Source: Candidatus Omnitrophota bacterium (GTDB lineage Bacteria > Omnitrophota > Gorgyraeia > Gygaellales > Profunditerraquicolaceae). From it: DNA of 64,000 nucleotides. The stretch covers positions 125,702-189,701 of the forward strand of contig JAPLLX010000006.1 in NCBI GenBank assembly GCA_026387335.1, read 5' to 3'. The translations under genes were made by a program, and so were the position numbers. The notes under the pieces were generated by a model. That model was given only the letters and a program-made list of their open reading frames with translations, was not told where the DNA came from and did not search any database. Shown in pieces: positions 33,171 through 60,597 of this stretch (its first letter is position 1; every line of letters begins with the position of its first letter).

Positions 33171-34361
33171 ATGCTACATTTAATGACTATGGAAGAAACT
33201 ACCAAACTAAAACAGGAACTTGAGCGCACTAAGACCGAGCTGGGCATACTTTATGAAATCTCCAATGCCATGCGCACCACCTTAAAACTGGATGAAATCC
33301 TTTATATCATCCTTACCGGCGTAACTGCGCATATAGGCTTAGGCTTTAACCGCGCCCTGCTCTTTTTAATTAACGAAAAGGAAGGCTTGATCGAAGGCAA
33401 AATGGGGATCGGGCCGGATTCCGGCGAAGAGGCCAACCGCATTTGGGGCCAGATAGAAGGCGAAAAAATGGACCTGGATGACCTGATTAGCGCTTATAAA
33501 TTCTCCAGTAACGACAATAACGGTTTTGAATCCGGATTTAATAAACAGGTACAGCAGATCAAGGTTTCACTGGCTGATAAAAATGAAAATCTGCTATCTC
33601 TAGTGGCCCTGGAAGGAATGCCCCTGCATCTTACAAAAGAAACAATCGCTAATTACCGGAACTCTTCGATCGTCCAATCATTAAAAAGCGAGGAATTGGT
33701 CCTAATCCCTTTAAAGGCCAAAGATAAGATAAACGGCATAATTGTCGCGGATAACTTTATTACCCGCGAACCAATCAGTAAAGATGACCTGCATATGCTG
33801 GCCATGCTCGCTAACCAGGCAGGCTTAGCCATTGAAAATTCCCAACTCTATGAGAAAACCGTAATGCTGGCGCATATGGATTCCCTGACGCAGCTTTGGA
33901 ACCACGGGTATTTTCAGTATCTCTTGCAGACAGAATTAGAAAAATCCCGGGCGGAAAAAGCTCCGCTTAGTCTGATCATGCTGGATATTGACCATTTTAA
34001 AATTTACAATGACACTCTGGGTCATCAAGCTGGAGATAAGATCTTAACCGAATTAGCTTTACTCCTTAAGGATCAATCACGTAAAATGGATTTTGTCTGC
34101 CGCTACGGCGGAGAAGAATTCGCGATGGTCCTGCCCCAGGCGGACAAAAAAGAAGCGTTCTTAATCGCCGAACGCTTGAGGATGGATATTGAAAAACACG
34201 CCTTTAGCCACGAAGATATATTTCCTACTAAGAAACTCACCGTCAGCCTCGGTCTTGCGTCTTTTCCCGAGGACGGGTTAGTCCCTGCCGAACTTGTTGC
34301 GGCTTCCGACAAGGCTTTATATCAGGCCAAGAATAAAGGAAGAAATAACACCTGCTGTTAA
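33171..34361 (+). CDS. GAF-domain diguanylate cyclase (GGDEF, active-site GGEEF)
   Basis: N-terminal coiled-coil/GAF-like region, then a GGDEF domain with RYGGEEF. The true start is probably a downstream in-frame ATG (33183 or 33189), because TTGACA-17 nt-TACATT at 33152-33180 overlaps the annotated start. Confidence 0.85.
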   Translation: MLHLMTMEETTKLKQELERTKTELGILYEISNAMRTTLKLDEILYIILTGVTAHIGLGFNRALLFLINEKEGLIEGKMGIGPDSGEEANRIWGQIEGEKMDLDDLISAYKFSSNDNNGFESGFNKQVQQIKVSLADKNENLLSLVALEGMPLHLTKETIANYRNSSIVQSLKSEELVLIPLKAKDKINGIIVADNFITREPISKDDLHMLAMLANQAGLAIENSQLYEKTVMLAHMDSLTQLWNHGYFQYLLQTELEKSRAEKAPLSLIMLDIDHFKIYNDTLGHQAGDKILTELALLLKDQSRKMDFVCRYGGEEFAMVLPQADKKEAFLIAERLRMDIEKHAFSHEDIFPTKKLTVSLGLASFPEDGLVPAELVAASDKALYQAKNKGRNNTCC

Positions 34362-37961: not shown

Positions 37962-38873
37962 TTATAAAAACCAGGTTATCAAGGCACCTAAAAACATCCA
38001 GGTAGCAAAGGGAAGATTTTTTTTAACAATTCTATCCGCATGCAGGTCTACTATCCTTTGAAACAGCGGCGCCAAAAGTATGACTAACAAAGTTTTTCCC
38101 AATATGCTTTTTATATCCAGGACAAACCGCTCCCAGGGGTAATCCATCTTTAAAAAAACATAGCCCATTAAAATTAAAAGGGCTAAGGATATCATTTTGA
38201 TATTTTTGTTAAAAAATCTGGAAAGCGGCGTAAACACAAATAAAGAAATTACTATAAGAATATTCTGATCGCCTGGAATCCTGCTCCCAAACAGATTGTA
38301 TAGCGACACATTGATCACCTTAAACAACAAAAAAAAGAAAAAAAACCCCAACAGGATATCACCGGCTTTGACTATATTAAATTTTGCCAGCTTTCCCTTA
38401 ATGAACCCATAAATCTTATCTCCAGGCTTAGAAAAATTAAACGTATTAGCAAAATAAACCCCGGACTTCACAATCAAAAATATGGTAGGCGGTATAAAAA
38501 TAGCCGACAATAATAAAAAGGCGGCAAAATAATAATTAAAATATACTTTAGAATATTGTCCTATAGGGATAAGCGCAACATAACAAACAAACAACTTAGC
38601 ATCGCCGGCCCCCCACATTCTAAAATGCCATAATACGTAAGCAACCAAACCGCTGATGAGCAAGTTTATGCACCATTTATCAAAGTTCCAGGTTAAGCCA
38701 GGGTTGGTCAGAGAGGGCTTACAGAAAATCCAAATCAAGGCGTAAGCAAAAAAAGAATAAAGCAGGCCAAGGATGACCCATTTATTTTTAATCTTGCTTT
38801 CCTTTATATCTTCGTAACTGGTAATAAAACCGATAAGAAGAATTATGGGTAGGAAAATTACATTGCTTGCCAT
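37962..38873 (-). CDS. A24-family prepilin peptidase-like membrane protein (CpaA/TadV/FlaK-like) with a long C-terminal polytopic extension
   Basis: 303 aa polytopic membrane protein. First catalytic-Asp context (YEDIKESKIKNKWVI, compare D-x5-IPN) and second motif (WGAGDAKLF, compare GGGDVKLL) both match A24 aspartic peptidases. Confidence 0.6.
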   Translation of the reverse strand: MASNVIFLPIILLIGFITSYEDIKESKIKNKWVILGLLYSFFAYALIWIFCKPSLTNPGLTWNFDKWCINLLISGLVAYVLWHFRMWGAGDAKLFVCYVALIPIGQYSKVYFNYYFAAFLLLSAIFIPPTIFLIVKSGVYFANTFNFSKPGDKIYGFIKGKLAKFNIVKAGDILLGFFFFFLLFKVINVSLYNLFGSRIPGDQNILIVISLFVFTPLSRFFNKNIKMISLALLILMGYVFLKMDYPWERFVLDIKSILGKTLLVILLAPLFQRIVDLHADRIVKKNLPFATWMFLGALITWFL

Positions 38874-39356: not shown

Positions 39357-40328
39357 TTAGTTAAATTGGATAATAAAAGGGGTTTCGGGAGCAAACTGCT
39401 TTTTTTGCCATTTGATTCTTTTTATCGCCCTGCCCCTTTTTAAGATTACCGTATCCTTACCTTCCAAAAATACACAATCGCCTCTTTTTAAATCAGCTTC
39501 ATAAAGGTTATTCTCCGGCATCTGCCCGATAAAATAAACATTTTTATAATATATCCTTTTATTTTTTATCTCACCCTCAAAAGCGTAAAATTTTCTCTCG
39601 TAAAAGACAAGCAGAGGCAATTTCAGATGCCTGTCAATATTCCTGACTAATTCCGGTTCCTCCTCATAAATAGCGCTCCTTATCTTCTTGGTCAAACTCA
39701 GGGTCTTGGCGCAATCATAAGAACAGGGCATATGATAAATATAAGAATACGTCACATCTTTAGTAAAAGGGTTGCACAGGAACGGATGCTTACCTTGAGG
39801 CGTATTTTTTAGTATCTCATAAAGGTGGCTGTACTTATTCCAGTTATTATATTTCCGAAAGAAAGCGACACAGCAGGCCGGATAGCCCAGGTCATGCCCG
39901 AATTTGAAAGCGTCTATCAACGGTTTATCGATAACCCTGTTTTTTATGATCAAAGGGTACCATCCGTTTCGAAGAGCCTTATCTAAGTTATTTTTTGTTT
40001 TAGCTACGAAGACATGGACAGCGCTATTGACCCGCGGCTGATTTAACGGCAAGCCAAAAGCGGTAGTGGTAGTTAAACGCTCCCTGCCCACAATACCCAT
40101 AGGTAGATCTGTTTTTTTGACTACATCAAAAATAGTATCTGGCTCAACAAAAAGCCCGTAGCTGGCACATATATTATTATACGCCTTAAGCCTGTTTACC
40201 GGTATCCAATCATCCATACAGGGCTTGATTCCCTTAATGGTAGCCATAATCATTACCAATTGGCCGCTATAGCCTTTTATCTCCACAAATTCCCTGCAGA
40301 ACTTTTTAGGCAAAAATGGCTCAAACAT
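39357..40328 (-). CDS. Hypothetical protein with conserved Cys/His motifs (GYPACC ... HMPCSYDC)
   Basis: 323 aa ORF tightly packed in the operon (0-nt gap to the TPR gene; 1-nt overlap with the upstream rSAM gene). No family recognised from sequence alone. Confidence 0.4.
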   Translation of the reverse strand: MFEPFLPKKFCREFVEIKGYSGQLVMIMATIKGIKPCMDDWIPVNRLKAYNNICASYGLFVEPDTIFDVVKKTDLPMGIVGRERLTTTTAFGLPLNQPRVNSAVHVFVAKTKNNLDKALRNGWYPLIIKNRVIDKPLIDAFKFGHDLGYPACCVAFFRKYNNWNKYSHLYEILKNTPQGKHPFLCNPFTKDVTYSYIYHMPCSYDCAKTLSLTKKIRSAIYEEEPELVRNIDRHLKLPLLVFYERKFYAFEGEIKNKRIYYKNVYFIGQMPENNLYEADLKRGDCVFLEGKDTVILKRGRAIKRIKWQKKQFAPETPFIIQFN

Positions 40329-41212
40329 TATTTAATAGGTTTAAATTCATTCCAACCAAAAATCTCCGGATATTCACGCCAAGGCCCCTCGCAACATTTA
40401 AAATACCTGCATTTCTTACAATTCGGTCCCTTAAGCTTCCCCTCTTCCTTGCGCCAACGGCTGAAATCCTCATTTATCTTTACATCAAAAACCTTGGTTT
40501 CCGGTATATGCTGCTCCGCTATACAATCCCGGTATTTGCCCAAAAGACAATAAGGTATCGCCTCTGTCCTGACGATCCTGCCTCTGGCGATCCCGATCTT
40601 TAAACCTTTTTTGACATAAGGCATGATCTCTTTTTTCCGGGGGACTATAAAACTAATATTCTTAAGGGCATTCCCTAAAATATGAGGATAAGCAAATTGA
40701 TACTGCGGTACGCCTAAATCGATCAGAAAATCAGCGATTTCGGGTAAGAAACGGTAGTTTTTCTGGTTAATGACCGTATTCGTGACCACCATCTTACCTA
40801 AGGATAAAATATTTTTAATACCCGCGCTACTCTGTTGGAAACTTCCTCTGGCGCCGGTAAGGTAATCATGTAACCTGGCATTATGTCCATGGATAGATAC
40901 GGCAAACATATCCGCCCCTGCCTTAATTATATCCCTACAAAAATCTTTATAAACAAACATCCGGCCATTAGTCTGAAGCTGCACCTTATACCCTAAACCC
41001 TTGGCAAAACTGACCAATCCTATGATATTAGGCCTTAAGGTAAGTTCACCGCCGGTAAATACCACCTCCCCAAAAGCTTTCCTGGACTTTTTTAAAATCT
41101 CCTTGATCTCTTGATCGCTCTTATCGGGGCAAAAATCCCTTTTATCGCCCTGTACGCAAAATTTACAGTGGTTATTGCATTTAAAACTAACCTTGATGTC
41201 AATACGATTCAT
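40328..41212 (-). CDS. Radical SAM protein with C-terminal Cys-rich (SPASM/twitch-like) region
   Basis: CNNHCKFC (CxxxCxxC) at residues 12-19; FTGGELTL glycine-rich motif; C-terminal CKKCRYFKCCEGPW. Confidence 0.85.
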   Translation of the reverse strand: MNRIDIKVSFKCNNHCKFCVQGDKRDFCPDKSDQEIKEILKKSRKAFGEVVFTGGELTLRPNIIGLVSFAKGLGYKVQLQTNGRMFVYKDFCRDIIKAGADMFAVSIHGHNARLHDYLTGARGSFQQSSAGIKNILSLGKMVVTNTVINQKNYRFLPEIADFLIDLGVPQYQFAYPHILGNALKNISFIVPRKKEIMPYVKKGLKIGIARGRIVRTEAIPYCLLGKYRDCIAEQHIPETKVFDVKINEDFSRWRKEEGKLKGPNCKKCRYFKCCEGPWREYPEIFGWNEFKPIK

Positions 41213-53833: not shown

Positions 53834-54978
53834 TTAATTAAGCAATTGCCGGGTCCCGTAAATTTTAGTAAACAAGCGGTTCCGGTGAAGTTTTCTTTCT
53901 ATTTCGAGAAAGGTATGGATATAAATCTGAGACAAGCGGCAGAATTGGGGAAAGTAGCGCTTAAAATCTAAGCCCCAAGAAGAAAAATAAATATAATGCC
54001 CAACCGGGCAGAAGCAGTATCTTAAATATTTACATCTATTGCAATCCTTACCGGTTAATTCCCTTATTTCTTTTCTCTTTTGGGCTAAGAGCTTAAGCCG
54101 TAAACGGTTATTTATCCCTTTATGGATATCCCCGATAATAAATTTTTTTCTTTCCGGCTGGGCTATAGAAAATACTTTATCGCAGCAATAAAAATTCCCC
54201 TCCCAACCTAAGTGGATTTTCTGGCAACGAATGGGTTTATAAAGCCCTTTTCCTCTTATAAATGTACCCAATAAAGAATTTTCAAAAATATCTTTACTAT
54301 CTTTGGCTTTCTCAAAGATAGAGATATAGAAATCGCTAAACTCCCGGAATGCTGATTCGGCTTTATCTAAGCCAGCTTTTGACCATTGGGTGTAAAGGTT
54401 AGGGAAGAAATTAATGCGGTTAAACCCCAGATTCCGGAGATATTTTATATTTTTGAGCAGGCCGCTGATTGTCTGAGGCGTAAAGACTAAAGCGGAATAT
54501 ATTTTATGTCTGGTGTTATCCAGATCCAGTCGCTTTAAGTTCCCGGCTAGGCGATCATGACTAGAGCCATATGCTTTGCGCTTGAAAGGACGGTTGGAGT
54601 CTTGAACCTTTTTCTGGCCGTCTATACTGACTGTGGTTATAATCCTGTTTTCTTTTAAAAAACTTGACCGGCTGGGAGTCAGAAGAGTACCGTTAGTAAC
54701 AACCGTAACCGCTAATTTTGAACTTCCCTTATTCTGCTGAATATAATGATACAGCTTTTTTAACTTTCCAAACCTTAAACAAGGTTCCCCGCCGACAAAA
54801 TTTATACTCTTAGTGTTTCCGGGAGATGTTAAAAAAAAACTACGGCCTTCTTTAACTGCTCAACATCCAGTTCTTTATCTTTACAACTGTCCTTTTTAAC
54901 GAAACAATAATGGCAATCTAAATTACAGTGCTTGGTCAAAAAGATGTTCAACGCCTCGGGATGACTTTCTAACACCAT
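53834..54978 (-). pseudogene. Radical SAM/SPASM maturase (HxsC-like position) interrupted by a single-base frameshift in a T9 homopolymer (54831-54839)
   Basis: From the ATG at 54976-54978: MVLESHPEALNIFLTKHCNLDCHYCFVKK...VVFF then stop. Reading on in the +2 frame through the T-run gives FFLTSPGNTKSINFVGGEP... and runs continuously into the annotated C-terminal fragment (53834..54271, CCDK...CNRCKYLRYCFCP). One extra T (T10) would restore an intact protein of about 380 aa. Confidence 0.7.
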
Positions 54979-55307
54979 CCCCCTCCTCGCCCATGGTTAC
55001 CGTGGTTAGAGTGGTTAGAGTGGTTAGAGTGGTTACTATGGTTGGTGTGCGAACTGGAATGTGGCGTAGAGGAAGTATGGCCGCCTCCCCCCCCAGAGAC
55101 GAGCGAGTTACTATGGCTGGAATGACTGGCATGCTGGGCCTGAGCGCCTTTAGGTTCTAGCATCATTCCCAATACGGCTAAAGATATGCCTAATTTAGCA
55201 ATATTCTTCTTAGAGGCGTTCCCTTCTTCATTAAAAAGAAAGTCTTTAATATTTCTTTTAGTAACGGGCAATTTTTTATTCACCTTCTTATGGAGCTTTT
55301 TTTTCAT
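54969..55307 (-). CDS. His/Ser-rich triplet-repeat secreted peptide (His-Xaa-Ser-repeat precursor-like)
   Basis: Likely start is MKKKLHKK (ATG 55305-55307), 6 nt after AAGGAGG; the ORF-track GTG start at 55376 overlaps the upstream gene. Hydrophobic segment IAKLGISLAVLGMMLEPKGAQA, then HASHSSHSNS...GGGGG...HSSSHTNHSNHSNHSNHSNHGNHGRGGGWC. Its stop overlaps the start of the downstream rSAM gene. Confidence 0.55.
   Translation of the reverse strand: MKKKLHKKVNKKLPVTKRNIKDFLFNEEGNASKKNIAKLGISLAVLGMMLEPKGAQAQHASHSSHSNSLVSGGGGGHTSSTPHSSSHTNHSNHSNHSNHSNHGNHGRGGGWC
54993..55047 (-). repeat. Tandem 9-bp coding repeats (GTGGTTAGA x3 perfect, plus degenerate flanking units) encoding the HSN triplet repeat
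   Basis: gtggttaga gtggttaga gtggttaga gtggttact atggttggt. Confidence 0.85.
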
Positions 55308-56073
55308 TACGCGCCTCCTTATTAAGGGTAGCACAATATTTCTGGATAAATTCTTCAAATCCCTCATACTTTTCACAAGTAGTTTCGTCCCCGCTGATAT
55401 AACCCTGGCACATTAATCTTATATTAGGATCTTTTATTCCGTTGCATTTAGCAAGATTCTTTTCCTTAATCGCTTTTATATAAATGACTTTATCTACACA
55501 AAAATCATTCTTGCACAGTTTAACGTTTCCGGTGGTAAAAGCCCTGCATTCATTGCGTTCTGCTTCATTTTGCGCCTTTTCACAGACAGAACTATCATTG
55601 TTCAGCACTCCTTGCATAAATAGTTTAAACCCTTCACTATTCCGGTCCTTCCAGGAATTCATCAATTGCAGGCTGTTAAAGCCGGACTTAAAAAATCTGC
55701 CGTATATACCCTGATACTCGGTAAAATTAACCCGGCAGTCTTCCAGAAGAGAAGGTTGTAAACTAAGTTTGCCGCATTCCTCTATATCATCCTTTACCAC
55801 TGAACGGCAGTAGATACAACCAGTTAGAAGCTCCACTATCGGGGCCACTCGGGGATCATTAAAGTCTACCTTGTTAATATAAAAATCCTTAGAGCAATCT
55901 GCTGGCTTTTTTTCTTGAGGATAAGTCTCCACTTCTTGGGGATAATCCTCGATTAACTCGGCTTCGCTAAAAAGGAAAGAAAAATGGCTACTCAACATAA
56001 GAGAAACCAGAGACAGGAAGATGACCTTTAGGGCTAGTTTAAATTTGTCCATTATCAGCTCCTCATCACCCAT
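55288..56073 (-). CDS. Cys-rich secreted/membrane-anchored protein (16 Cys in the mature part)
   Basis: 261 aa; N-terminal hydrophobic helix LALKVIFLSLVSLMLSS; cysteines in spaced pairs (CIYC, CEKAQNEAERNEC, CKNDFC). Lies between the rSAM gene and the His/Ser peptide. Confidence 0.5.
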   Translation of the reverse strand: MGDEELIMDKFKLALKVIFLSLVSLMLSSHFSFLFSEAELIEDYPQEVETYPQEKKPADCSKDFYINKVDFNDPRVAPIVELLTGCIYCRSVVKDDIEECGKLSLQPSLLEDCRVNFTEYQGIYGRFFKSGFNSLQLMNSWKDRNSEGFKLFMQGVLNNDSSVCEKAQNEAERNECRAFTTGNVKLCKNDFCVDKVIYIKAIKEKNLAKCNGIKDPNIRLMCQGYISGDETTCEKYEGFEEFIQKYCATLNKEARNEKKAP

Positions 56074-57497
56074 TTATAAAATATATCCTTTATCTTCTCA
56101 TCTTTGAGCTTAATAAATAAATAATCCAAAATACCCTTATTGATCTGGCACCAAAATGCGGACTTATTAAAAATGTTCCCATTTATGGTATAATTCTGCA
56201 AAGGACATACCCCGCAATAGGGTTTATATACGCACTGGCTGCATTCGGGAAGATTATCCAGGCATGACGCTATGCACATCGTTTTTACCACGTTACTCTT
56301 AAAAAAATCCCTGTGCGAACCGGTCCTTACATTACCCAGCCTAAAAGATTCGTCTTTCTGCCGGCTCATCATCCTTCCTTCGTCACAGGCATAAACATCG
56401 CCATTAAAATTATAAGCCATTTGCCCTGTCCCTGCCCCGCAGGGAGAACGCAAATCAACATAACCCGGATCTTTATCCGTCAAAATTTTAGTTAAAAATA
56501 TCACGGCGAACCTTTCCCGAAAATCTTTGCCTTTCATATTCAAATCTATTATATGATCCAAAGCCTTTTTATAAAAAGTAAGGAAATCCTGCCCGGAGAA
56601 AGCTAACCTCTTCCATACCTTCTTATTAGTCCCAAACGGGCTTAGCGGCCTTAAATGCATCCCTTCCAGCCCTAATTTTACATATTCATTGACAATTTCT
56701 TTCGGAAAAGGAAGGGCCAGGCGGGTAATCGTAGCCAGAGCGAACGGCTTATGGCAGGAATTTGCTTTTTTATACTCCCTTATTAATCTTTTCAGCCATT
56801 TAACCGTATTTTTATGACTATTTTTATTCCCCAGAGTAACCCTGCATTTGTTATGCACCTTTTCGGGCCCATCCAATGAAGTGCATATATGGATATCGTT
56901 CTTTAAAAGGTACTTAACTATTTTCTCATTCATAAAGGTCAAATTGGATACAACGGTAAAACGCAAGTCCTTCTTGGCTTTTTTGTTCTTCTCTTGAGCA
57001 TACCGAACAATAAATTTTATAATTTCAAAATTGACTAAGGGTTCGCCTCCCTGAAATTCAATAGTAATTCCTTTATTGGCAGATTCAAAAATCCTATCGA
57101 CAACTTTTTCAGCCGTAGCTATATCCATATCTAATTCATTTTCCTTAAGATCCCGGGAACTTGCCTGACAATAAATACACTTATGGTCGCATCTTAAAGT
57201 AACTACCACAATATGTAAAGCGGTGCCTGCACTCCTTAAAAACATATTTTTTTGCACGTATCTTTGGGCCAGGTTATCAAAGTTTAACTGACCCCGGATA
57301 AAACCTTTATTCCGCAACTGGGAATACTCTTGGGGCGAAGCTTGTTCTATTTTACCGCTAAGGAAGGCGTTAAAACTTGGGGGCTGCAAAAAAATATAAT
57401 CCCCTATGACATTAGTCAGCAAATATTGCCCGTTTAACCGCTTAAATTGAAAGAAACCGACCTTCTGTCTATCTATCTTTTCAGACTCTAGCAACAT
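56055..57497 (-). CDS. Radical SAM/SPASM peptide-maturase-type enzyme with an about 100-aa N-terminal extension (HxsB-like position)
   Basis: LRCDHKCIYCQAS; FQGGEPL; C-terminal SPASM CGAG...YACDEG ... CSQCVYKPYCGVCP. Confidence 0.85.
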   Translation of the reverse strand: MLLESEKIDRQKVGFFQFKRLNGQYLLTNVIGDYIFLQPPSFNAFLSGKIEQASPQEYSQLRNKGFIRGQLNFDNLAQRYVQKNMFLRSAGTALHIVVVTLRCDHKCIYCQASSRDLKENELDMDIATAEKVVDRIFESANKGITIEFQGGEPLVNFEIIKFIVRYAQEKNKKAKKDLRFTVVSNLTFMNEKIVKYLLKNDIHICTSLDGPEKVHNKCRVTLGNKNSHKNTVKWLKRLIREYKKANSCHKPFALATITRLALPFPKEIVNEYVKLGLEGMHLRPLSPFGTNKKVWKRLAFSGQDFLTFYKKALDHIIDLNMKGKDFRERFAVIFLTKILTDKDPGYVDLRSPCGAGTGQMAYNFNGDVYACDEGRMMSRQKDESFRLGNVRTGSHRDFFKSNVVKTMCIASCLDNLPECSQCVYKPYCGVCPLQNYTINGNIFNKSAFWCQINKGILDYLFIKLKDEKIKDIFYKWVMRS

Positions 57498-57700
57498 TTC
57501 TTGGTCGCTCCTAAGACGTAATTGTTAAATTCATCTACAAATATATCCTTGACCTGCGTATCTATATTCTCTATTTTTACTTCTAGGTAATCTTTACAAT
57601 CCTTGACCCTGAATTTTGCCAGATGAGCATAAGCAAGGATCGCTTTCTGGATCGCCTTTTTTTTATAAAACCGAGTATTAAATCTTACGTTTTCTGGCAT
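57488..57700 (-). CDS. Small hypothetical protein (70 aa, ends ...KKCC)
   Basis: ORF overlapping both neighbours within the operon; no family recognised. Confidence 0.3.
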   Translation of the reverse strand: MPENVRFNTRFYKKKAIQKAILAYAHLAKFRVKDCKDYLEVKIENIDTQVKDIFVDEFNNYVLGATKKCC

Positions 57701-58082
57701 TTTTCTGTTTTCTATGTTTCTTTTTCCAAGGCAAAGCTATACCTAAAGGATCATCCTGATAATCCAGTTTTTCGGAAAGACTGACTACACCCGGACCCGG
57801 TAAAGTAGTATATAAAGCGCGGCCAACGATATATTCCCTGATCTTTTTGTTATTCTTACTTATCTCGTATCTTAAGGCGCAGCGCAATAGCTCATTCTTG
57901 AATTCACCTTTTAACGCTTCCAGTTTTTTACCCGCAACCTTGCCTTTACTTTTAAAAAAAACCTTAATCTGATTTCCCTTAAGATCGCTATCCAAAAAAA
58001 TGTAGACGCGGTCAATAAATAAATAACAAGCATTCAAAATAGCTTCTAAAGGATAGATTCTTGCGCTTAGCTTAATCTCCAC
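57678..58082 (-). CDS. Small hypothetical protein with basic C-terminal tail (possible HxsD-like accessory protein; unverified)
   Basis: 134 aa, GTG start; located between the secreted paralogs and the rSAM/SPASM gene. Confidence 0.35.
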   Translation of the reverse strand: MEIKLSARIYPLEAILNACYLFIDRVYIFLDSDLKGNQIKVFFKSKGKVAGKKLEALKGEFKNELLRCALRYEISKNNKKIREYIVGRALYTTLPGPGVVSLSEKLDYQDDPLGIALPWKKKHRKQKNARKRKI

Positions 58083-58115: not shown

Positions 58116-58457
58116 TTAAGGTGACACAAAATAATCTACCGTACTCACCCATTTACTTTTATTTTTAACCCATACGTCACTAGCCGCGATCTCACCGTTA
58201 ACATCCAGTTCCGTCTGAACGCCCCCGTAGCTAGCTGCGCTGGTCGCTCCAATATTCACCTGCCCCTGGACAATAAGGCCGTTACTGGGCAGAGTGGTTG
58301 CTCTATACCCGGAGCCGATGGACATCTGGTCCGAGCGCAATTCTATATAACTACCGTAGGGCGAGGGATAGTAGGTAGCGATGGGGATGTTTTCTCCGGC
58401 AAAAACAGTTATATATCCTAAAAAAGATACCGCGATAATTAATAATAACTTCTTCAT
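58116..58457 (-). CDS. Secreted Gly/Ser-rich protein, paralog 1 (113 aa)
   Basis: Signal peptide MKKLLLIIAVSFLGYITVFAG; mature part ENIPIATYYPSPYGSY...VNGEIAASDVWVKNKSKW shared with paralog 2. Confidence 0.6.
   Translation of the reverse strand: MKKLLLIIAVSFLGYITVFAGENIPIATYYPSPYGSYIELRSDQMSIGSGYRATTLPSNGLIVQGQVNIGATSAASYGGVQTELDVNGEIAASDVWVKNKSKWVSTVDYFVSP
58149..58337 (-). repeat. 189-bp near-identical direct repeat, copy A (copy B at 58633..58821; about 98% identity)
   Basis: Copy A (58149..58337) aligns with copy B (58633..58821) with only 3-4 mismatches, which indicates a recent tandem duplication or gene conversion between the paralogous genes. Confidence 0.8.
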
Positions 58458-58470
58458 TGGAGGCCTTTAA

Positions 58471-58950
58471 TTAACCGCAGCATAAAAAAGATCCGGACGT
58501 AGGTATATCATAAGTAGTGGGGCTAGTGCCATATATTGGCTGAAACCAACTATACGTAGTCCCTGAACCGCAGAGGGTATTTCCAGTATTAGGTCCATAT
58601 GTCTTCATTGTACACCAGCTCAGACTCCCCAGCCATTTACTTTTATTTTTAACCCATACGTCACTAGCCGCGATCTCACCGTTAACATCCAGTTCCGTCT
58701 GAACGCCCCCGTAGCTAGCTGCGCTGGTCGCTCCAATACTCACCTGCCCCTCGATAATAAGGCCGTTACTGGGCAGAGTGGTTGCTCTATACCCGGAGCC
58801 GATGGACATCTGGTCCGAGCGTAGATTCGCGTAAACTCCGTAAGGCGAAGGATAATAAGTGGTAATGGTCAGATCTTCTGAAAAAGCAAAAGGGAAGGAA
58901 ATTATAATTAAACCTATAGAAATTACTAACGTGGTAAAAAATTTATTCAT
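58471..58950 (-). CDS. Secreted Gly/Ser-rich protein, paralog 2, with Cys-containing C-terminal tail
   Basis: Likely start MNKFF (ATG 58948-58950) preceded by AAGAGGTG. Shares the core with paralog 1, plus the tail CTMKTYGPNTGNTLCGSGTTYSWFQPIYGTSPTTYDIPTSGSFLCCG. Confidence 0.6.
   Translation of the reverse strand: MNKFFTTLVISIGLIIISFPFAFSEDLTITTYYPSPYGVYANLRSDQMSIGSGYRATTLPSNGLIIEGQVSIGATSAASYGGVQTELDVNGEIAASDVWVKNKSKWLGSLSWCTMKTYGPNTGNTLCGSGTTYSWFQPIYGTSPTTYDIPTSGSFLCCG
58633..58821 (-). repeat. 189-bp direct repeat, copy B
   Basis: See copy A (58149..58337). Confidence 0.8.
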
Positions 58951-59028
58951 TGCACCTCTTAGCATAATTCCTACTTGACCCTGCCCGCTCTTAAGAATAA
59001 ATTATCATAACTCCTGCAATGAGTCAAG

Positions 59029-60597
59029 TTAAAACAGGTGCGCCTTGACCCTGGCAATATCTTCTCCCTGCTTAAGCTCATTTATGAAATTTTCCATATT
59101 CTTCTCCCAGGCCCTATCCGTAAAAAAATAACGCGCGAGGTACTTATTCATTCGCCGCGGATCTTTAAACTTCCTGTTCATTAAAAATACGAACTGGACA
59201 GGCCTGAAATAATCAATCTTATTGCGGTCCAGGCACTCTAAGAAACGGGAATACCGGTATTCCATCAATTTCCTAGCCATATCCCACTTCCAACCCCGGA
59301 ATTCATCATAGGCAAACTCAAAACCCGGATTTGATTGCTCCCTAACATTAATAATCCTGTATTTTGCGCAAGATCTAAACATCAGACTTTCCGGTTTAAG
59401 CACAAACCTGTTTAAATTAACTCCTTTAATATACGCATTATTATCTCTTATGAATTCCAGCGTGGAAATGATATCCTGGCTCGTCTCAAAAGGCAAACCG
59501 ATCAACAGGTCTATCTCTACCCAGATGCCCAGGTCATGGCATAGTTTTAAAATATGGGAAGCGTGTTTAAGGTCAATGACTTTACCTATGTATTTCTGCA
59601 GTTTAATACCGGCGGATTCCAATCCGATCACCAGCCTTACTGCCCCCGCTTCTTTTAAACGCAAAAGTATTTCTTTATCCAGGTTATTAAAGGTGGCGCA
59701 GTCGGTAAACTTTATCTTTAGGCGCTCTTTTGCTATCTTATCGGTAAGATCCCGGACAGTCTGCTTGGTTGGATTGATATTCGAATTCAGAAAAAAGAAG
59801 TCCTGCGTCTTATGTTCCCGTTTAAGAAATTTTAGTTCGCGGATTATCCTATCGTAATCCTTTATCTTAAATCCGGGTTTTCCGGATAATTCACAAAATA
59901 TACAGCTATTCTGGCAGCCTTCGATAAACGTATACGGGAGCAATAAAGGAAGTGATTTTGAAACGCCGGTATATCTGGATAAATTGCTTATCCGCCCTGA
60001 ATGCGGGAGAAACTCCGAGATTATAGTATTCCTGCTGTATTTATATAGGCTAAGCGGAAACCCCTTAAAATTCGGCTCTAAGAAAATCCGGGGAAGTTTC
60101 GGGTTAAGCTTGTTTTTGACGTTTAAAAAATCAATAAAGCTGTCTATACTGGAAGTCTGGTAATCTATAAGGCCTGCCTCTCGGTAAGCCGGCAGCTCGA
60201 AATTAGCGACGATTATCACGCCATAGCTATCTTTTATCTTCTTCATCAGGCAGGCGGCGATAGCCTGGCTGTTGATTCTATCCAACGACGGGTAATGCCC
60301 GGAAAAACAGACATAATCATACCCCGAAAAATCTGTTAAGGCCATTACTTTTGCGGTTTCCGCATCAATCTCAGCGCAAGCAGACCCGCGTAGGTAATCA
60401 TTGACTCTGGCTTGGTCCAGAAAAACATCCGTTTTTATGCTCCCCTTTACCAAAGACCTGTAAAGTTTGACATAAAGATCGTCGATATCATGCTCTATAT
60501 TATTCTGGCTTAAAGCCGAACTTACTAGCGCCAGGCCCAAAGGAGGCATGAAGGCATGATAGAAATAGTAAGGGGTAAGAACTAATTTCACTTTCAT
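59029..60597 (-). CDS. Cobalamin-binding-domain radical SAM protein (class B-type architecture)
   Basis: N-terminal B12-binding-like region (VLTPYY...PPLGLALVSSAL) and rSAM motif EGCQNSCIFCEL; 522 aa. Starts 21 nt downstream of etfA. Confidence 0.8.
   Translation of the reverse strand: MKVKLVLTPYYFYHAFMPPLGLALVSSALSQNNIEHDIDDLYVKLYRSLVKGSIKTDVFLDQARVNDYLRGSACAEIDAETAKVMALTDFSGYDYVCFSGHYPSLDRINSQAIAACLMKKIKDSYGVIIVANFELPAYREAGLIDYQTSSIDSFIDFLNVKNKLNPKLPRIFLEPNFKGFPLSLYKYSRNTIISEFLPHSGRISNLSRYTGVSKSLPLLLPYTFIEGCQNSCIFCELSGKPGFKIKDYDRIIRELKFLKREHKTQDFFFLNSNINPTKQTVRDLTDKIAKERLKIKFTDCATFNNLDKEILLRLKEAGAVRLVIGLESAGIKLQKYIGKVIDLKHASHILKLCHDLGIWVEIDLLIGLPFETSQDIISTLEFIRDNNAYIKGVNLNRFVLKPESLMFRSCAKYRIINVREQSNPGFEFAYDEFRGWKWDMARKLMEYRYSRFLECLDRNKIDYFRPVQFVFLMNRKFKDPRRMNKYLARYFFTDRAWEKNMENFINELKQGEDIARVKAHLF

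Follow-up and report, generated by a model that had tools for sequence, protein, structure and literature searches.

The HXS system of E. coli blocks the entry of phage DNA and is classed as an antiphage system (Li et al., Nat Commun 2026, PMC13128918). Its HxsA protein carries a signal peptide, binds peptidoglycan, contains the His-Xaa-Ser (HxS) repeat five times and acts in the periplasm, and two enzymes of the radical S-adenosylmethionine (rSAM) type, HxsB and HxsC, together with HxsD, are required for its N-terminal processing and for a modification of +8 Da (PMC13128918). As published, 99.7% of HXS systems are found in Pseudomonadota, more than 99.8% consist of exactly four genes, and 99.6% have the gene order D-B-C-A (PMC13128918). 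The figure for Pseudomonadota is probably due to the tracing of HxsA in NCBI genomes. Here we analyze two adjacent genes that lie directly before a set of Hxs genes in a Candidatus Omnitrophota bacterium, at positions 58116-58950 of the minus strand of a 64,000-nucleotide stretch of DNA, hereafter the window (GenBank assembly GCA_026387335.1, contig JAPLLX010000006.1, positions 125,702 to 189,701). They code for a long and a short protein with signal peptide-like N-termini, a nearly identical central region, and different C-termini.

The cassette that follows these genes resembles the E. coli system in several respects. An HxsD, an HxsB and a His-Xaa-Ser protein bearing a signal or transmembrane segment (compare NCBIfam TIGR03976-03979) form a tight cluster on the same strand, sister cassettes include an HxsC-like rSAM enzyme, and the presumed exported effector is encoded beside cytoplasmic rSAM maturases, as in E. 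coli. Unlike the E. coli system, the Omnitrophota cassettes have the order (fibre protein x1-2)-D-D'-(C)-B-A3-(Cys-rich secreted protein), they include in addition an HxsD-like protein of 70 residues and a secreted, Cys-rich one of some 260 residues, and their presumed effector, of the HxsA3 type, has no peptidoglycan-binding domain. Furthermore, the window has no HxsC gene adjacent to HxsB, and a B12-binding-type rSAM gene lies upstream of the two genes. Judged from its genes, the window cassette is an Omnitrophota variant of HXS.

We found that the two proteins have a common anatomy, belong to a large family of fibre-like proteins, undergo gene conversion in their central region, and are linked to Hxs genes in a conserved manner. 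The explanation that we favour, with moderate confidence and on the strength of sequence comparisons, is that they are exported accessory components of the cell envelope that belong to this variant HXS system. Their export, their trimerisation or hetero-assembly, and a role in HXS-type defence are what we infer from these observations. As far as we could find, neither an Omnitrophota HXS variant led by fibre-like secreted proteins nor the concerted evolution of such a pair has been described.

Two proteins with a common stalk and different ends

The long or "headed" paralog (58471-58950, 159 residues) and the short or "headless" paralog (58116-58457, 113 residues) are both open reading frames of the minus strand, separated by 13 bp. 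An alternative in-frame ATG at 58965 would lengthen the long protein to 164 residues. We favour the start at 58950 as the likely one because a strong Shine-Dalgarno sequence, AAGAGGTG, lies 4 nt ahead of this ATG and because homologs begin with MNKFFT. Overall the two proteins are 70% identical, and they share the same order of elements: a signal peptide, a mature N-terminus of the form T-x-YYPSPYG-x-Y, one stalk repeat some 40 residues long (…IGSGYR…NGLIVEGxVGIG…LDVNGEIAA) and, after it, the neck DVWVKNKSKW. Seven residues follow the neck Trp in the short protein (…KWVSTVDYFVSP), which is free of Cys. The long protein continues into a Cys-rich C-terminal knob (residues 107-159, 58474-58632, minus strand) that ends in SGSFLCCG and holds exactly four Cys, at positions 113, 127, 157 and 158, all of which are kept in every long ortholog.

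Each N-terminus consists of a short basic region, a hydrophobic stretch of about 17-20 residues, and a cleavage-type site of small residues (AFS|ED in one protein and VFA|GEN in the other), followed by TYYPSPYG. The hydrophobic stretch is modelled as a helix (residues 2-19) in the AlphaFold2 (AF2) model of the short form, and Sec signal-peptide cleavage is predicted for both proteins from these features. The original prediction had pointed to Sec-type signal peptides and to the conserved TYYPSPYG in both paralogs, and the same two features recur across our family alignments. The YYPSPYG codons were located by a match to a DNA pattern at 58838-58857 in the long gene and at 58354-58373 in the short one, both on the minus strand; the motif-encoding pattern (YYPxxPYG) has just 2 sites in the 64-kb window, where the chance expectation is 0. 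A type IV pilin or class III signal was considered and rejected, as the N-termini MNKFFTTLVISIGLIIISFPFAFS|ED… and MKKLLLIIAVSFLGYITVFA|GEN… have no G|FTLxE motif and no pilin model of Pfam or NCBIfam matched them. A scan with the curated libraries Pfam, NCBIfam, PHROGs and PADLOC, the Hxs models of NCBIfam included, matched neither paralog.

The similarity between the two genes is concentrated in one segment of 189 bp, as had been noted in the original prediction. This segment covers codons R44 to W106 of the long paralog (58633-58821), that is, the stalk repeat and the neck, and it is identical at 186 of 189 positions (98.4%) to 58149-58337 of the short paralog, both on the minus strand. The edges of the tract are sharp: just beyond them, with the register kept, only 29% (one side) and 48% (other side) of the positions are identical. 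A repeat search recovers the same pair of tracts, stretched to 250 nt at 89% identity, with the copies 484 bp apart. Two further assemblies, from different samples, represent a sister strain (L083 and L084); they are identical to each other over 14,477 bp, have 97.9% nucleotide identity to the window, and both contain the tandem pair. When the 189-bp cores were compared, the two paralogs of the window differed at 3 sites, the orthologs of the window and L083 at 6 (long) and 7 (short) sites, and the two paralogs of L083 at 10. Furthermore, core site 38 is A in both copies of the window and G in both copies of L083. The two paralogs of the window resemble each other more than they resemble their orthologs, and a substitution is shared by both copies within a strain; therefore, gene conversion has taken place after the two strains diverged. 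Of the two origins that had been offered for the near-identity, recent duplication or ongoing gene conversion, these data bear out the latter.

The same pattern extends beyond the two sister strains. Core identity between the long and the short protein of the same genome was 71-97% in seven of nine pairs, compared with a mean of 48-50% and a maximum of 71% between genomes; in this comparison the pairing of P0005 with P0014 is assumed, the window and L083 count as sister strains, and the pairing of P0012 with P0015, which lie on separate contigs and of which P0015 looks chimeric, was given no weight. Signal peptides of the same genome are 4-30% identical (the unverified P0012/P0015 pairing excepted) and group by long or short type. 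Both proteins of L004 carry a derived '…SIGYGADTG…' core, and both proteins of L165 an '…EGRTGIGT…GGKQAELDVNGEIAASDVY…' core. According to these alignments, the core has been converted repeatedly, in more than one lineage, and the two types have kept their own signal peptides and C-termini. We also observed that the first 55 of the 109 residues of P0015 are as in the long-type P0012 and the rest as in the short-type P0031, so that this protein could have arisen by natural recombination of the two forms or by a faulty assembly through the homogenised core.

Gene conversion is a general cause of concerted evolution among surface-protein paralogs in tandem, known for example in tandem families of adhesins and pilins. 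The pair studied here is like them in having a sharply bounded homogenised tract, paralogs of one genome that are more alike than the orthologs of different strains, and variable ends that are kept. It is unlike them in that the tract comprises only the presumed oligomerising stalk and in that conversion recurs in different lineages of one headed and headless pair. These two features suggest selection for matching stalks rather than for antigenic variation.

The duplication that gave rise to the two genes was far from recent, as far as their sequences tell. Long and short genes in pairs were found in L003, L004, L162, L163, L165 and L083/84 in addition to the window, which makes at least seven distinct loci, with identities between genomes of 46-61% among long proteins and 38-70% among short ones. 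The long orthologs (L003, L004, L162, L163 and L165) keep the pattern W-C…C…SGSFLCC, and the short orthologs end in DYFVS or DYLVxS (L003, L004 and L162) or in the divergent ECFVEP (L163) and GVFVVP (L165). The short paralog of the window is identical to P0010, a protein from an NCBI metagenome-assembled genome (MAG) of Candidatus Omnitrophica. The split between long and short forms is therefore best described as old and conserved, which leaves no place for the recent duplication that the original prediction had offered.

Near-identical cores could also be produced by an assembly artefact, through the collapse or duplication of a repeat, or by a very recent duplication. A near-perfect 189-bp repeat with copies 484 bp apart in a MAG is a feature that assemblers can mishandle, and the database protein P0015 has the appearance of a chimera of the two forms. 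Against this, the tandem arrangement is present with unique flanks around each copy in three assemblies (window, L083 and L084) and in five more divergent genomes, the two copies in the window differ in length and C-terminus and have signal peptides with 12% identity, and separate long and short types have been kept across genomes at 46-61% identity. An artefact, which had been named as one outcome that would undo the original prediction, is therefore contradicted by the tandem pair in L083 and L084 in particular, and we regard this explanation as having a negligible probability.

The pair and the Hxs genes

In the window the short gene is followed, on the minus strand, by genes for HxsD (57678-58082; TIGR03976, 66.9 bits against a cutoff of 50), for a 70-residue HxsD-like protein (57488-57700; NF038315, 69.3 bits against a cutoff of 41) and for the rSAM/SPASM maturase HxsB (56055-57497; TIGR03978, 505.9 bits against a cutoff of 370). 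HxsD starts 33 bp past the short paralog, and the next two junctions are overlaps (-23 bp between HxsD and HxsD-like, -10 bp between HxsD-like and HxsB). Each of the seven distinct loci that are informative has the pair directly upstream of HxsD (window, L083/84, L003, L004, L162, L163 and L165). There it is followed by HxsD, by the HxsD-like gene, and then either by HxsB (window, L083/84, L163 and L165) or by an HxsC-like gene and HxsB (L003 and L004), the sequence of L162 ending within the HxsD-like gene. Annotation of the orthologs with PF27806 (HxsD) supports the identity of HxsD. The original prediction had placed the pair between a B12-like rSAM gene and an Hxs-like module and had tied it to rSAM genes; the position is as described, and the tie holds in the sense that the pair stands before HxsD at every informative locus. 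The other outcome named as fatal to the original prediction, homologs that stand alone without rSAM genes nearby, is thus not what this subfamily shows.

The HxsD proteins of these loci are of two types, proteins of the same type being 62-79% identical and those of different types 28-36%. The long and short proteins have identities of 38-70% in all comparisons and do not divide in this way. As the HxsD split is deep and the pair is unsplit, the pair has been kept while the maturase module diverged or was exchanged. ETF-alpha, encoded in the flank of the locus, has 93% identity when the window is compared with L003.

Since the pair loci share flanks, we sampled other HxsD loci of the Omnitrophota type. 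A profile made from seven HxsD sequences found 1527 proteins at E<=1e-5, and six further loci were taken from these; among the best 120 of the 1527 relatives, the named matches were Omnitrophota MAG proteins or were labelled simply HxsD. In three of the six sampled cassettes (L166, L167 and L169), which have unrelated flanks, a single YYPxP[YF]G protein of 129-188 residues, ending in …EVWFCxNY, is encoded 0-34 nt upstream of HxsD. L144 is a further locus with a single family member directly before HxsD, and the gaps over these four loci are 0-42 nt. No Hxs homolog was found in any of the approximately 150 other family loci examined. Together, these comparisons indicate that the link between the family and Hxs is specific and recurrent, and that it is not obligatory.

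The B12-binding-type rSAM gene upstream of the pair (59029-60597, minus strand) scores under every NCBIfam cutoff. Orthologs with 81% identity precede the long gene in just two loci, L163 and L164, and a tblastn search over 82 other loci found none. We consequently rejected this enzyme as a general conserved partner of the pair, a role that the original prediction had allowed for, because it is confined to a single cassette type (window, L163 and L164).

The YYPSPYG family and the possible role of the pair

A word-indexed search gave 22 relatives of the pair, and those with an organism name were all Candidatus Omnitrophica or Omnitrophota MAG proteins. A profile search of 1.84 billion cluster representatives gave 3828 clusters (50% identity) at E<=1e-3, and with the limit set at E<=1e-10 the number was 806. 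A large part of the matches are proteins of 100-400 residues that align from residue 1, and others are giants of up to 3530 residues in which profile positions ~45-100 are matched up to 16-18 times. The repeat of the giants, as read from the sequence, has about 40 residues ('…N-x-AIG-x-x-Y…AP-x-NGLIVEGNVGIGT…LDVxG'). The conversion tract of the pair corresponds to exactly one stalk repeat of the family together with the neck, DV[WY]hK….W.S, and in many relatives this neck precedes a Cys-rich C-terminal domain. When one genome per species was scanned for Y[YF]P[SA]PYG[SV]Y, 331 of the 397 matches encoded relatives; among the 79 loci listed nearly all titles were Omnitrophota, the others being Planctomycetia/Planctomycetales, Elusimicrobiaceae, Patescibacteria and Deltaproteobacteria. 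Omnitrophota MAGs often have several family members per genome.

All members have a signal peptide followed by (E/D)-x-hTITTYYPSPYG(S/V)Y, and residues Y32, P34, P36, Y37, G38 and Y40 are invariant in every alignment made (16 to 86 sequences). We count as family members proteins with a signal peptide and T-x-Y-[YF]-P-[SAT]-P-Y-G-x-Y and with at least one stalk repeat (…AIGxxY…NGLIVEGxVGIGT…LDVxG), and both paralogs have these features. The C-terminal ends of the family vary: Peptidase_S74 is present in 23 of the 86 members from species genomes, Gp53-like_C in 1, C1q in one further relative, and Cys-rich C-termini are frequent across the sampled superfamily members. Several of the giants (P0024, P0027, P0028 and others), of 1000-3530 residues, have 12-18 tandem stalk repeats and no Pfam domains, and in P0024 an N-terminal region with a hydrophobic segment stands in place of the YYPSPYG module.

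A phage origin of the family was considered and rejected: no relatives were found in IMG/VR, a tblastn search with a four-repeat family member gave no match among GenBank phages, and on account of this absence we take the family to be cellular and not viral. A literature search with the motif strings found no paper on the family, and a preprint on giant genes of Omnitrophota does not mention it. The YYPSPYG family has no curated model and is, as far as we found, apparently undescribed. In part by inference, we consider the pair to be minimal members of a large Omnitrophota family of fibre-like surface or periplasmic proteins, one with a knob of four Cys and the other headless.

Among the closest described proteins are the phage-type tail fibres and spikes with Peptidase_S74 (PF13884), the intramolecular chaperone of trimeric endosialidase-type proteins. 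The larger members of the family are like them in joining the same N-terminal module and stalk repeats to S74, gp53-like or C1q ends. The pair is unlike them in having no S74, C1q or other recognised domain and one repeat only, and the family differs in having Sec signal peptides and in being cellular; trimers of it are a prediction. An AF2 model of the short form as a monomer, from 63 sequences, has a predicted local distance difference test (pLDDT) score of 71 and a predicted template modelling (pTM) score of 0.36, and consists of an extended chain with almost no secondary structure. This is compatible with, and does not prove, a fibre made of obligate oligomers.

If the pair is an accessory envelope component, both proteins would be exported by Sec, and the long and the short form would associate through their identical stalk repeat, probably in mixed trimers with fewer than three knobs. 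Mixed oligomers of this kind would explain why the stalk alone is homogenised while the ends stay distinct. In the envelope the pair might act as a scaffold, an anchor or a sensor for the rSAM-matured HxsA3-like effector, and it could possibly stand in for the peptidoglycan-binding function that this effector is missing. Several of our results weigh against this proposal. The AF2 model of the long form as a monomer, from an alignment of 16 sequences, was unusable (pLDDT 48.9), a Foldseek search of the short-form model against the PDB gave nothing significant (best E 2.5), and a sequence-profile search of the PDB gave a chance-level match only (E 0.39). Wherever the upstream flank of a pair locus is visible, which is not so in L004 and L165, it holds either ETF genes or the rSAM gene of the B12 type, and shared ancestry could explain part of the adjacency of pair and HxsD. 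The other three of the six sampled cassettes (L168, L170 and L171) have no adjacent family member. Finally, the published system, with its four genes and its peptidoglycan-binding effector, has no fibre-like accessory proteins.

Two other explanations of the pair have to be weighed against the one that we favour. The pair, or even the whole family, could be substrates of the neighbouring rSAM enzymes, modified in the cytoplasm before Sec export, with thioether or other cross-links placed either within the tail of four Cys or on the motif's aromatic-X-Ser/Ala/Thr triads, and with HxsD or the HxsD-like protein as the substrate-binding partner. The pair lies immediately upstream of HxsD at every informative locus and a B12-type rSAM gene directly precedes it in one cassette type; HxsB has its next-best scores with thioether-forming maturases (PapB and SCIFF) and also matches cyclophane-forming ones (GrrM/OscB and YhhB); and E. 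coli HxsA provides a precedent for a protein that bears a signal peptide and yet is modified by HxsB and HxsC before it reaches the periplasm (PMC13128918). The six invariant residues of the motif, moreover, look more like a processing or recognition signal than like a structural element. The pair has further points in common with the precursors of rSAM/SPASM enzymes, that is, the Cys-rich ranthipeptides or SCIFF peptides and the triceptides: these are also small proteins encoded beside SPASM maturases, and the tail of four Cys and the aromatic-X-Ser-like triads have a similar look. Unlike those precursors, the two proteins have classical Sec signal peptides instead of leader or follower peptides, the short one offers no Cys, and both belong to a huge family in which Cys-rich C-termini are common and of which some 150 other loci are without an Hxs homolog. 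Furthermore, a protein with HxS repeats like the demonstrated substrate is already present in the cassette, such repeats are absent from the pair, the divergence of long and short proteins does not track the deep split between HxsD types, and no family member adjoins three of the six further cassettes. The Cys tail consequently loses the meaning of a substrate mark that the original prediction had suggested for it, and we consider modification of the pair by the rSAM enzymes unlikely, and less likely than its role as an accessory envelope component. A narrower form of this idea is that YYPSPYGxY is itself a recognition and modification signal, on whose aromatic-X-Ser/Ala/Thr triads an Hxs-type rSAM enzyme, with HxsD or the HxsD-like protein as binding partner, makes cross-links as it does on His-Xaa-Ser repeats. 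We hold this to be improbable. If true, the family member adjacent to HxsD would be the "local" substrate of a phylum-wide system for the maturation of surface fibres, the Omnitrophota Hxs cassette would be a system for fibre maturation or sorting rather than, or besides, an antiphage system, and the motif would be a new N-terminal sorting or modification signal.

The pair could also consist of ordinary subunits of a surface fibre or adhesin with no tie to Hxs, located at a variable chromosomal hot spot downstream of ETF genes at which accessory cassettes come and go, with gene conversion as a neutral by-product of the tandem layout. The large size of the family, with several copies per genome that are mostly unlinked to Hxs, fits this possibility, and so do the ETF or B12-type rSAM flanks shared by the pair loci where the flank is visible, the swapping or deep divergence of the adjoining Hxs module (28-36% HxsD identity) while the pair stayed, and the fact that related genomes, a few kb downstream of ETF-alpha, have a different member of the family and no Hxs genes there. 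It does not account for the single members directly before HxsD in L144, L166, L167 and L169, with their unrelated flanks and short gaps; we judge this recurrence to be far above chance for a family that makes up a small fraction of the genome, a judgement made without a count of copy numbers or a formal test. The gaps of 13 and 33 bp in the window, which are like those of an operon, and the homogenisation of the core in several lineages, with ends that remain type-specific, also speak against it, and we consider a hot-spot location without any tie to Hxs as doubtful as the modification of the pair by its rSAM neighbours.

The locus and the more than 1000 relatives of its HxsD, the named ones among the top matches being from Omnitrophota, indicate a widespread and differently built version of HXS in an uncultured and possibly host-dependent phylum. 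If the pair works with the HxS-repeat effector, as we favour, it would provide a clue to how such effectors are positioned or triggered in the envelope. The YYPSPYG family, in turn, probably makes up much of the cell surface of Omnitrophota, and the stalk-only homogenisation of a headed and a headless member predicts mixed oligomers.

Other genes of the cassette and its surroundings

The HxsA3-like His-Xaa-Ser repeat protein of the window (…HSNHSNHSNHSNHGNH…) is encoded at 54969-55376 on the minus strand. It scores 43.7 bits with NF038309, below the cutoff of 65; it has visible HSN/HxS repeats and a hydrophobic N-terminal segment, and the Pfam scan found no peptidoglycan-binding domain in it. 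By analogy with HxsA it is presumed to be the effector and the rSAM substrate. HxsA3-like proteins are also encoded in L003 (5444-5710), L166 (8957-9262), L167 (8406-8699), L168 (8968-9252), L169 (8019-8315), L170 (7915-8238) and L171 (7958-8254). All the Omnitrophota HxsA3-like proteins have a very basic N-terminus, the sequence 'F[IL]xDE[DE]G[YF][VI]SKE[NT]ILKIGLGT' followed by a hydrophobic stretch, and His-rich HxS repeats that end in …H(A/T)S(H)SSY. The layout of a Gly followed by a hydrophobic stretch resembles a long leader of the class III type. A gene of the A24 family, prepilin peptidase-like, is found at the end of the cassette in L168, and another is found in the window at 37962-38873.

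A Cys-rich secreted protein of 261 residues, recognised in the list of open reading frames and without matches in Pfam or NCBIfam, is encoded at 55288-56073 on the minus strand. It precedes the HxsA3-like gene in the window and follows it in most of the cassettes examined. Counterparts of 245-270 residues are encoded in L003 (5730-6470), L167 (8686-9498), L168 (9324-10124), L169 (8422-9228) and L170 (8261-8998); at 1e-4 no sequence match was found between cassette types, so that these are putative counterparts, by size and position.

No rSAM gene lies between the HxsD-like and HxsB genes of the window, and HxsC is consequently not adjacent to HxsB. A gene for an HxsC-like rSAM protein, with a match to the Radical_SAM model of Pfam and 48% identity to the HxsC4-like protein of L003, is located about 15 kb from HxsB (40328-41212, minus strand), which suggests that the cassette has been split by inserted rSAM and glycosyltransferase genes. 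The HxsC-like proteins encoded beside HxsB in L003 and L004 score 92-96 bits with TIGR03977, against a cutoff of 267.9. We also observed a second HxsB-like rSAM/SPASM gene in the window (53834-54993, minus strand), which is split over two frames (tblastn pieces 54993-54859 and 54808-53993) and of which the only intact open reading frame codes for a SPASM-only product of 145 residues (53834-54271). Because L083 and L084 have the same split, this gene is either a pseudogene or frameshift common to both strains or else split in a programmed manner, and its state is not a sequencing error of one assembly.

The original prediction also proposed a promoter, TTGACT-N17-TAATTT, in the gap upstream of the long gene. 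The string is indeed present (59027 to 58999, minus strand), but it makes a weak promoter candidate, with a -10 element that matches at 3 of 6 positions. It overlaps TTAACT-N17-TATGAT, which matches at 9 of 12, and the two together give one or more weak candidate promoters of the sigma-70 type at 58999-59032 on the minus strand. Compared with shuffled sequences, the region shows no enrichment in promoter-like sites (20 against 14.5 +/- 4.2).

The region between ETF-alpha and SMC, at 37.6-60.6 kb of the window, is an island of about 23 kb with a lower G+C content (0.37-0.40, compared with 0.43-0.46). It contains at least 10 rSAM genes along with genes for GT2 glycosyltransferases, for a fusion protein with a methyltransferase, for an asparagine synthase-like protein, for a U32 peptidase, for TPR and DUF483 proteins and for the A24 peptidase. 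The island is missing in the relatives L037, L060 and L065, in which ETF-alpha is followed by SMC. These island-less relatives have another YYPSPYG-family gene between SMC and RecA (9989-11578 in L037, with Peptidase_S74; 9905-10873 in L060; and 10001-10654 in L065), and the corresponding position in the window is occupied by a plus-strand GGDEF/GAF gene (33171-34361).

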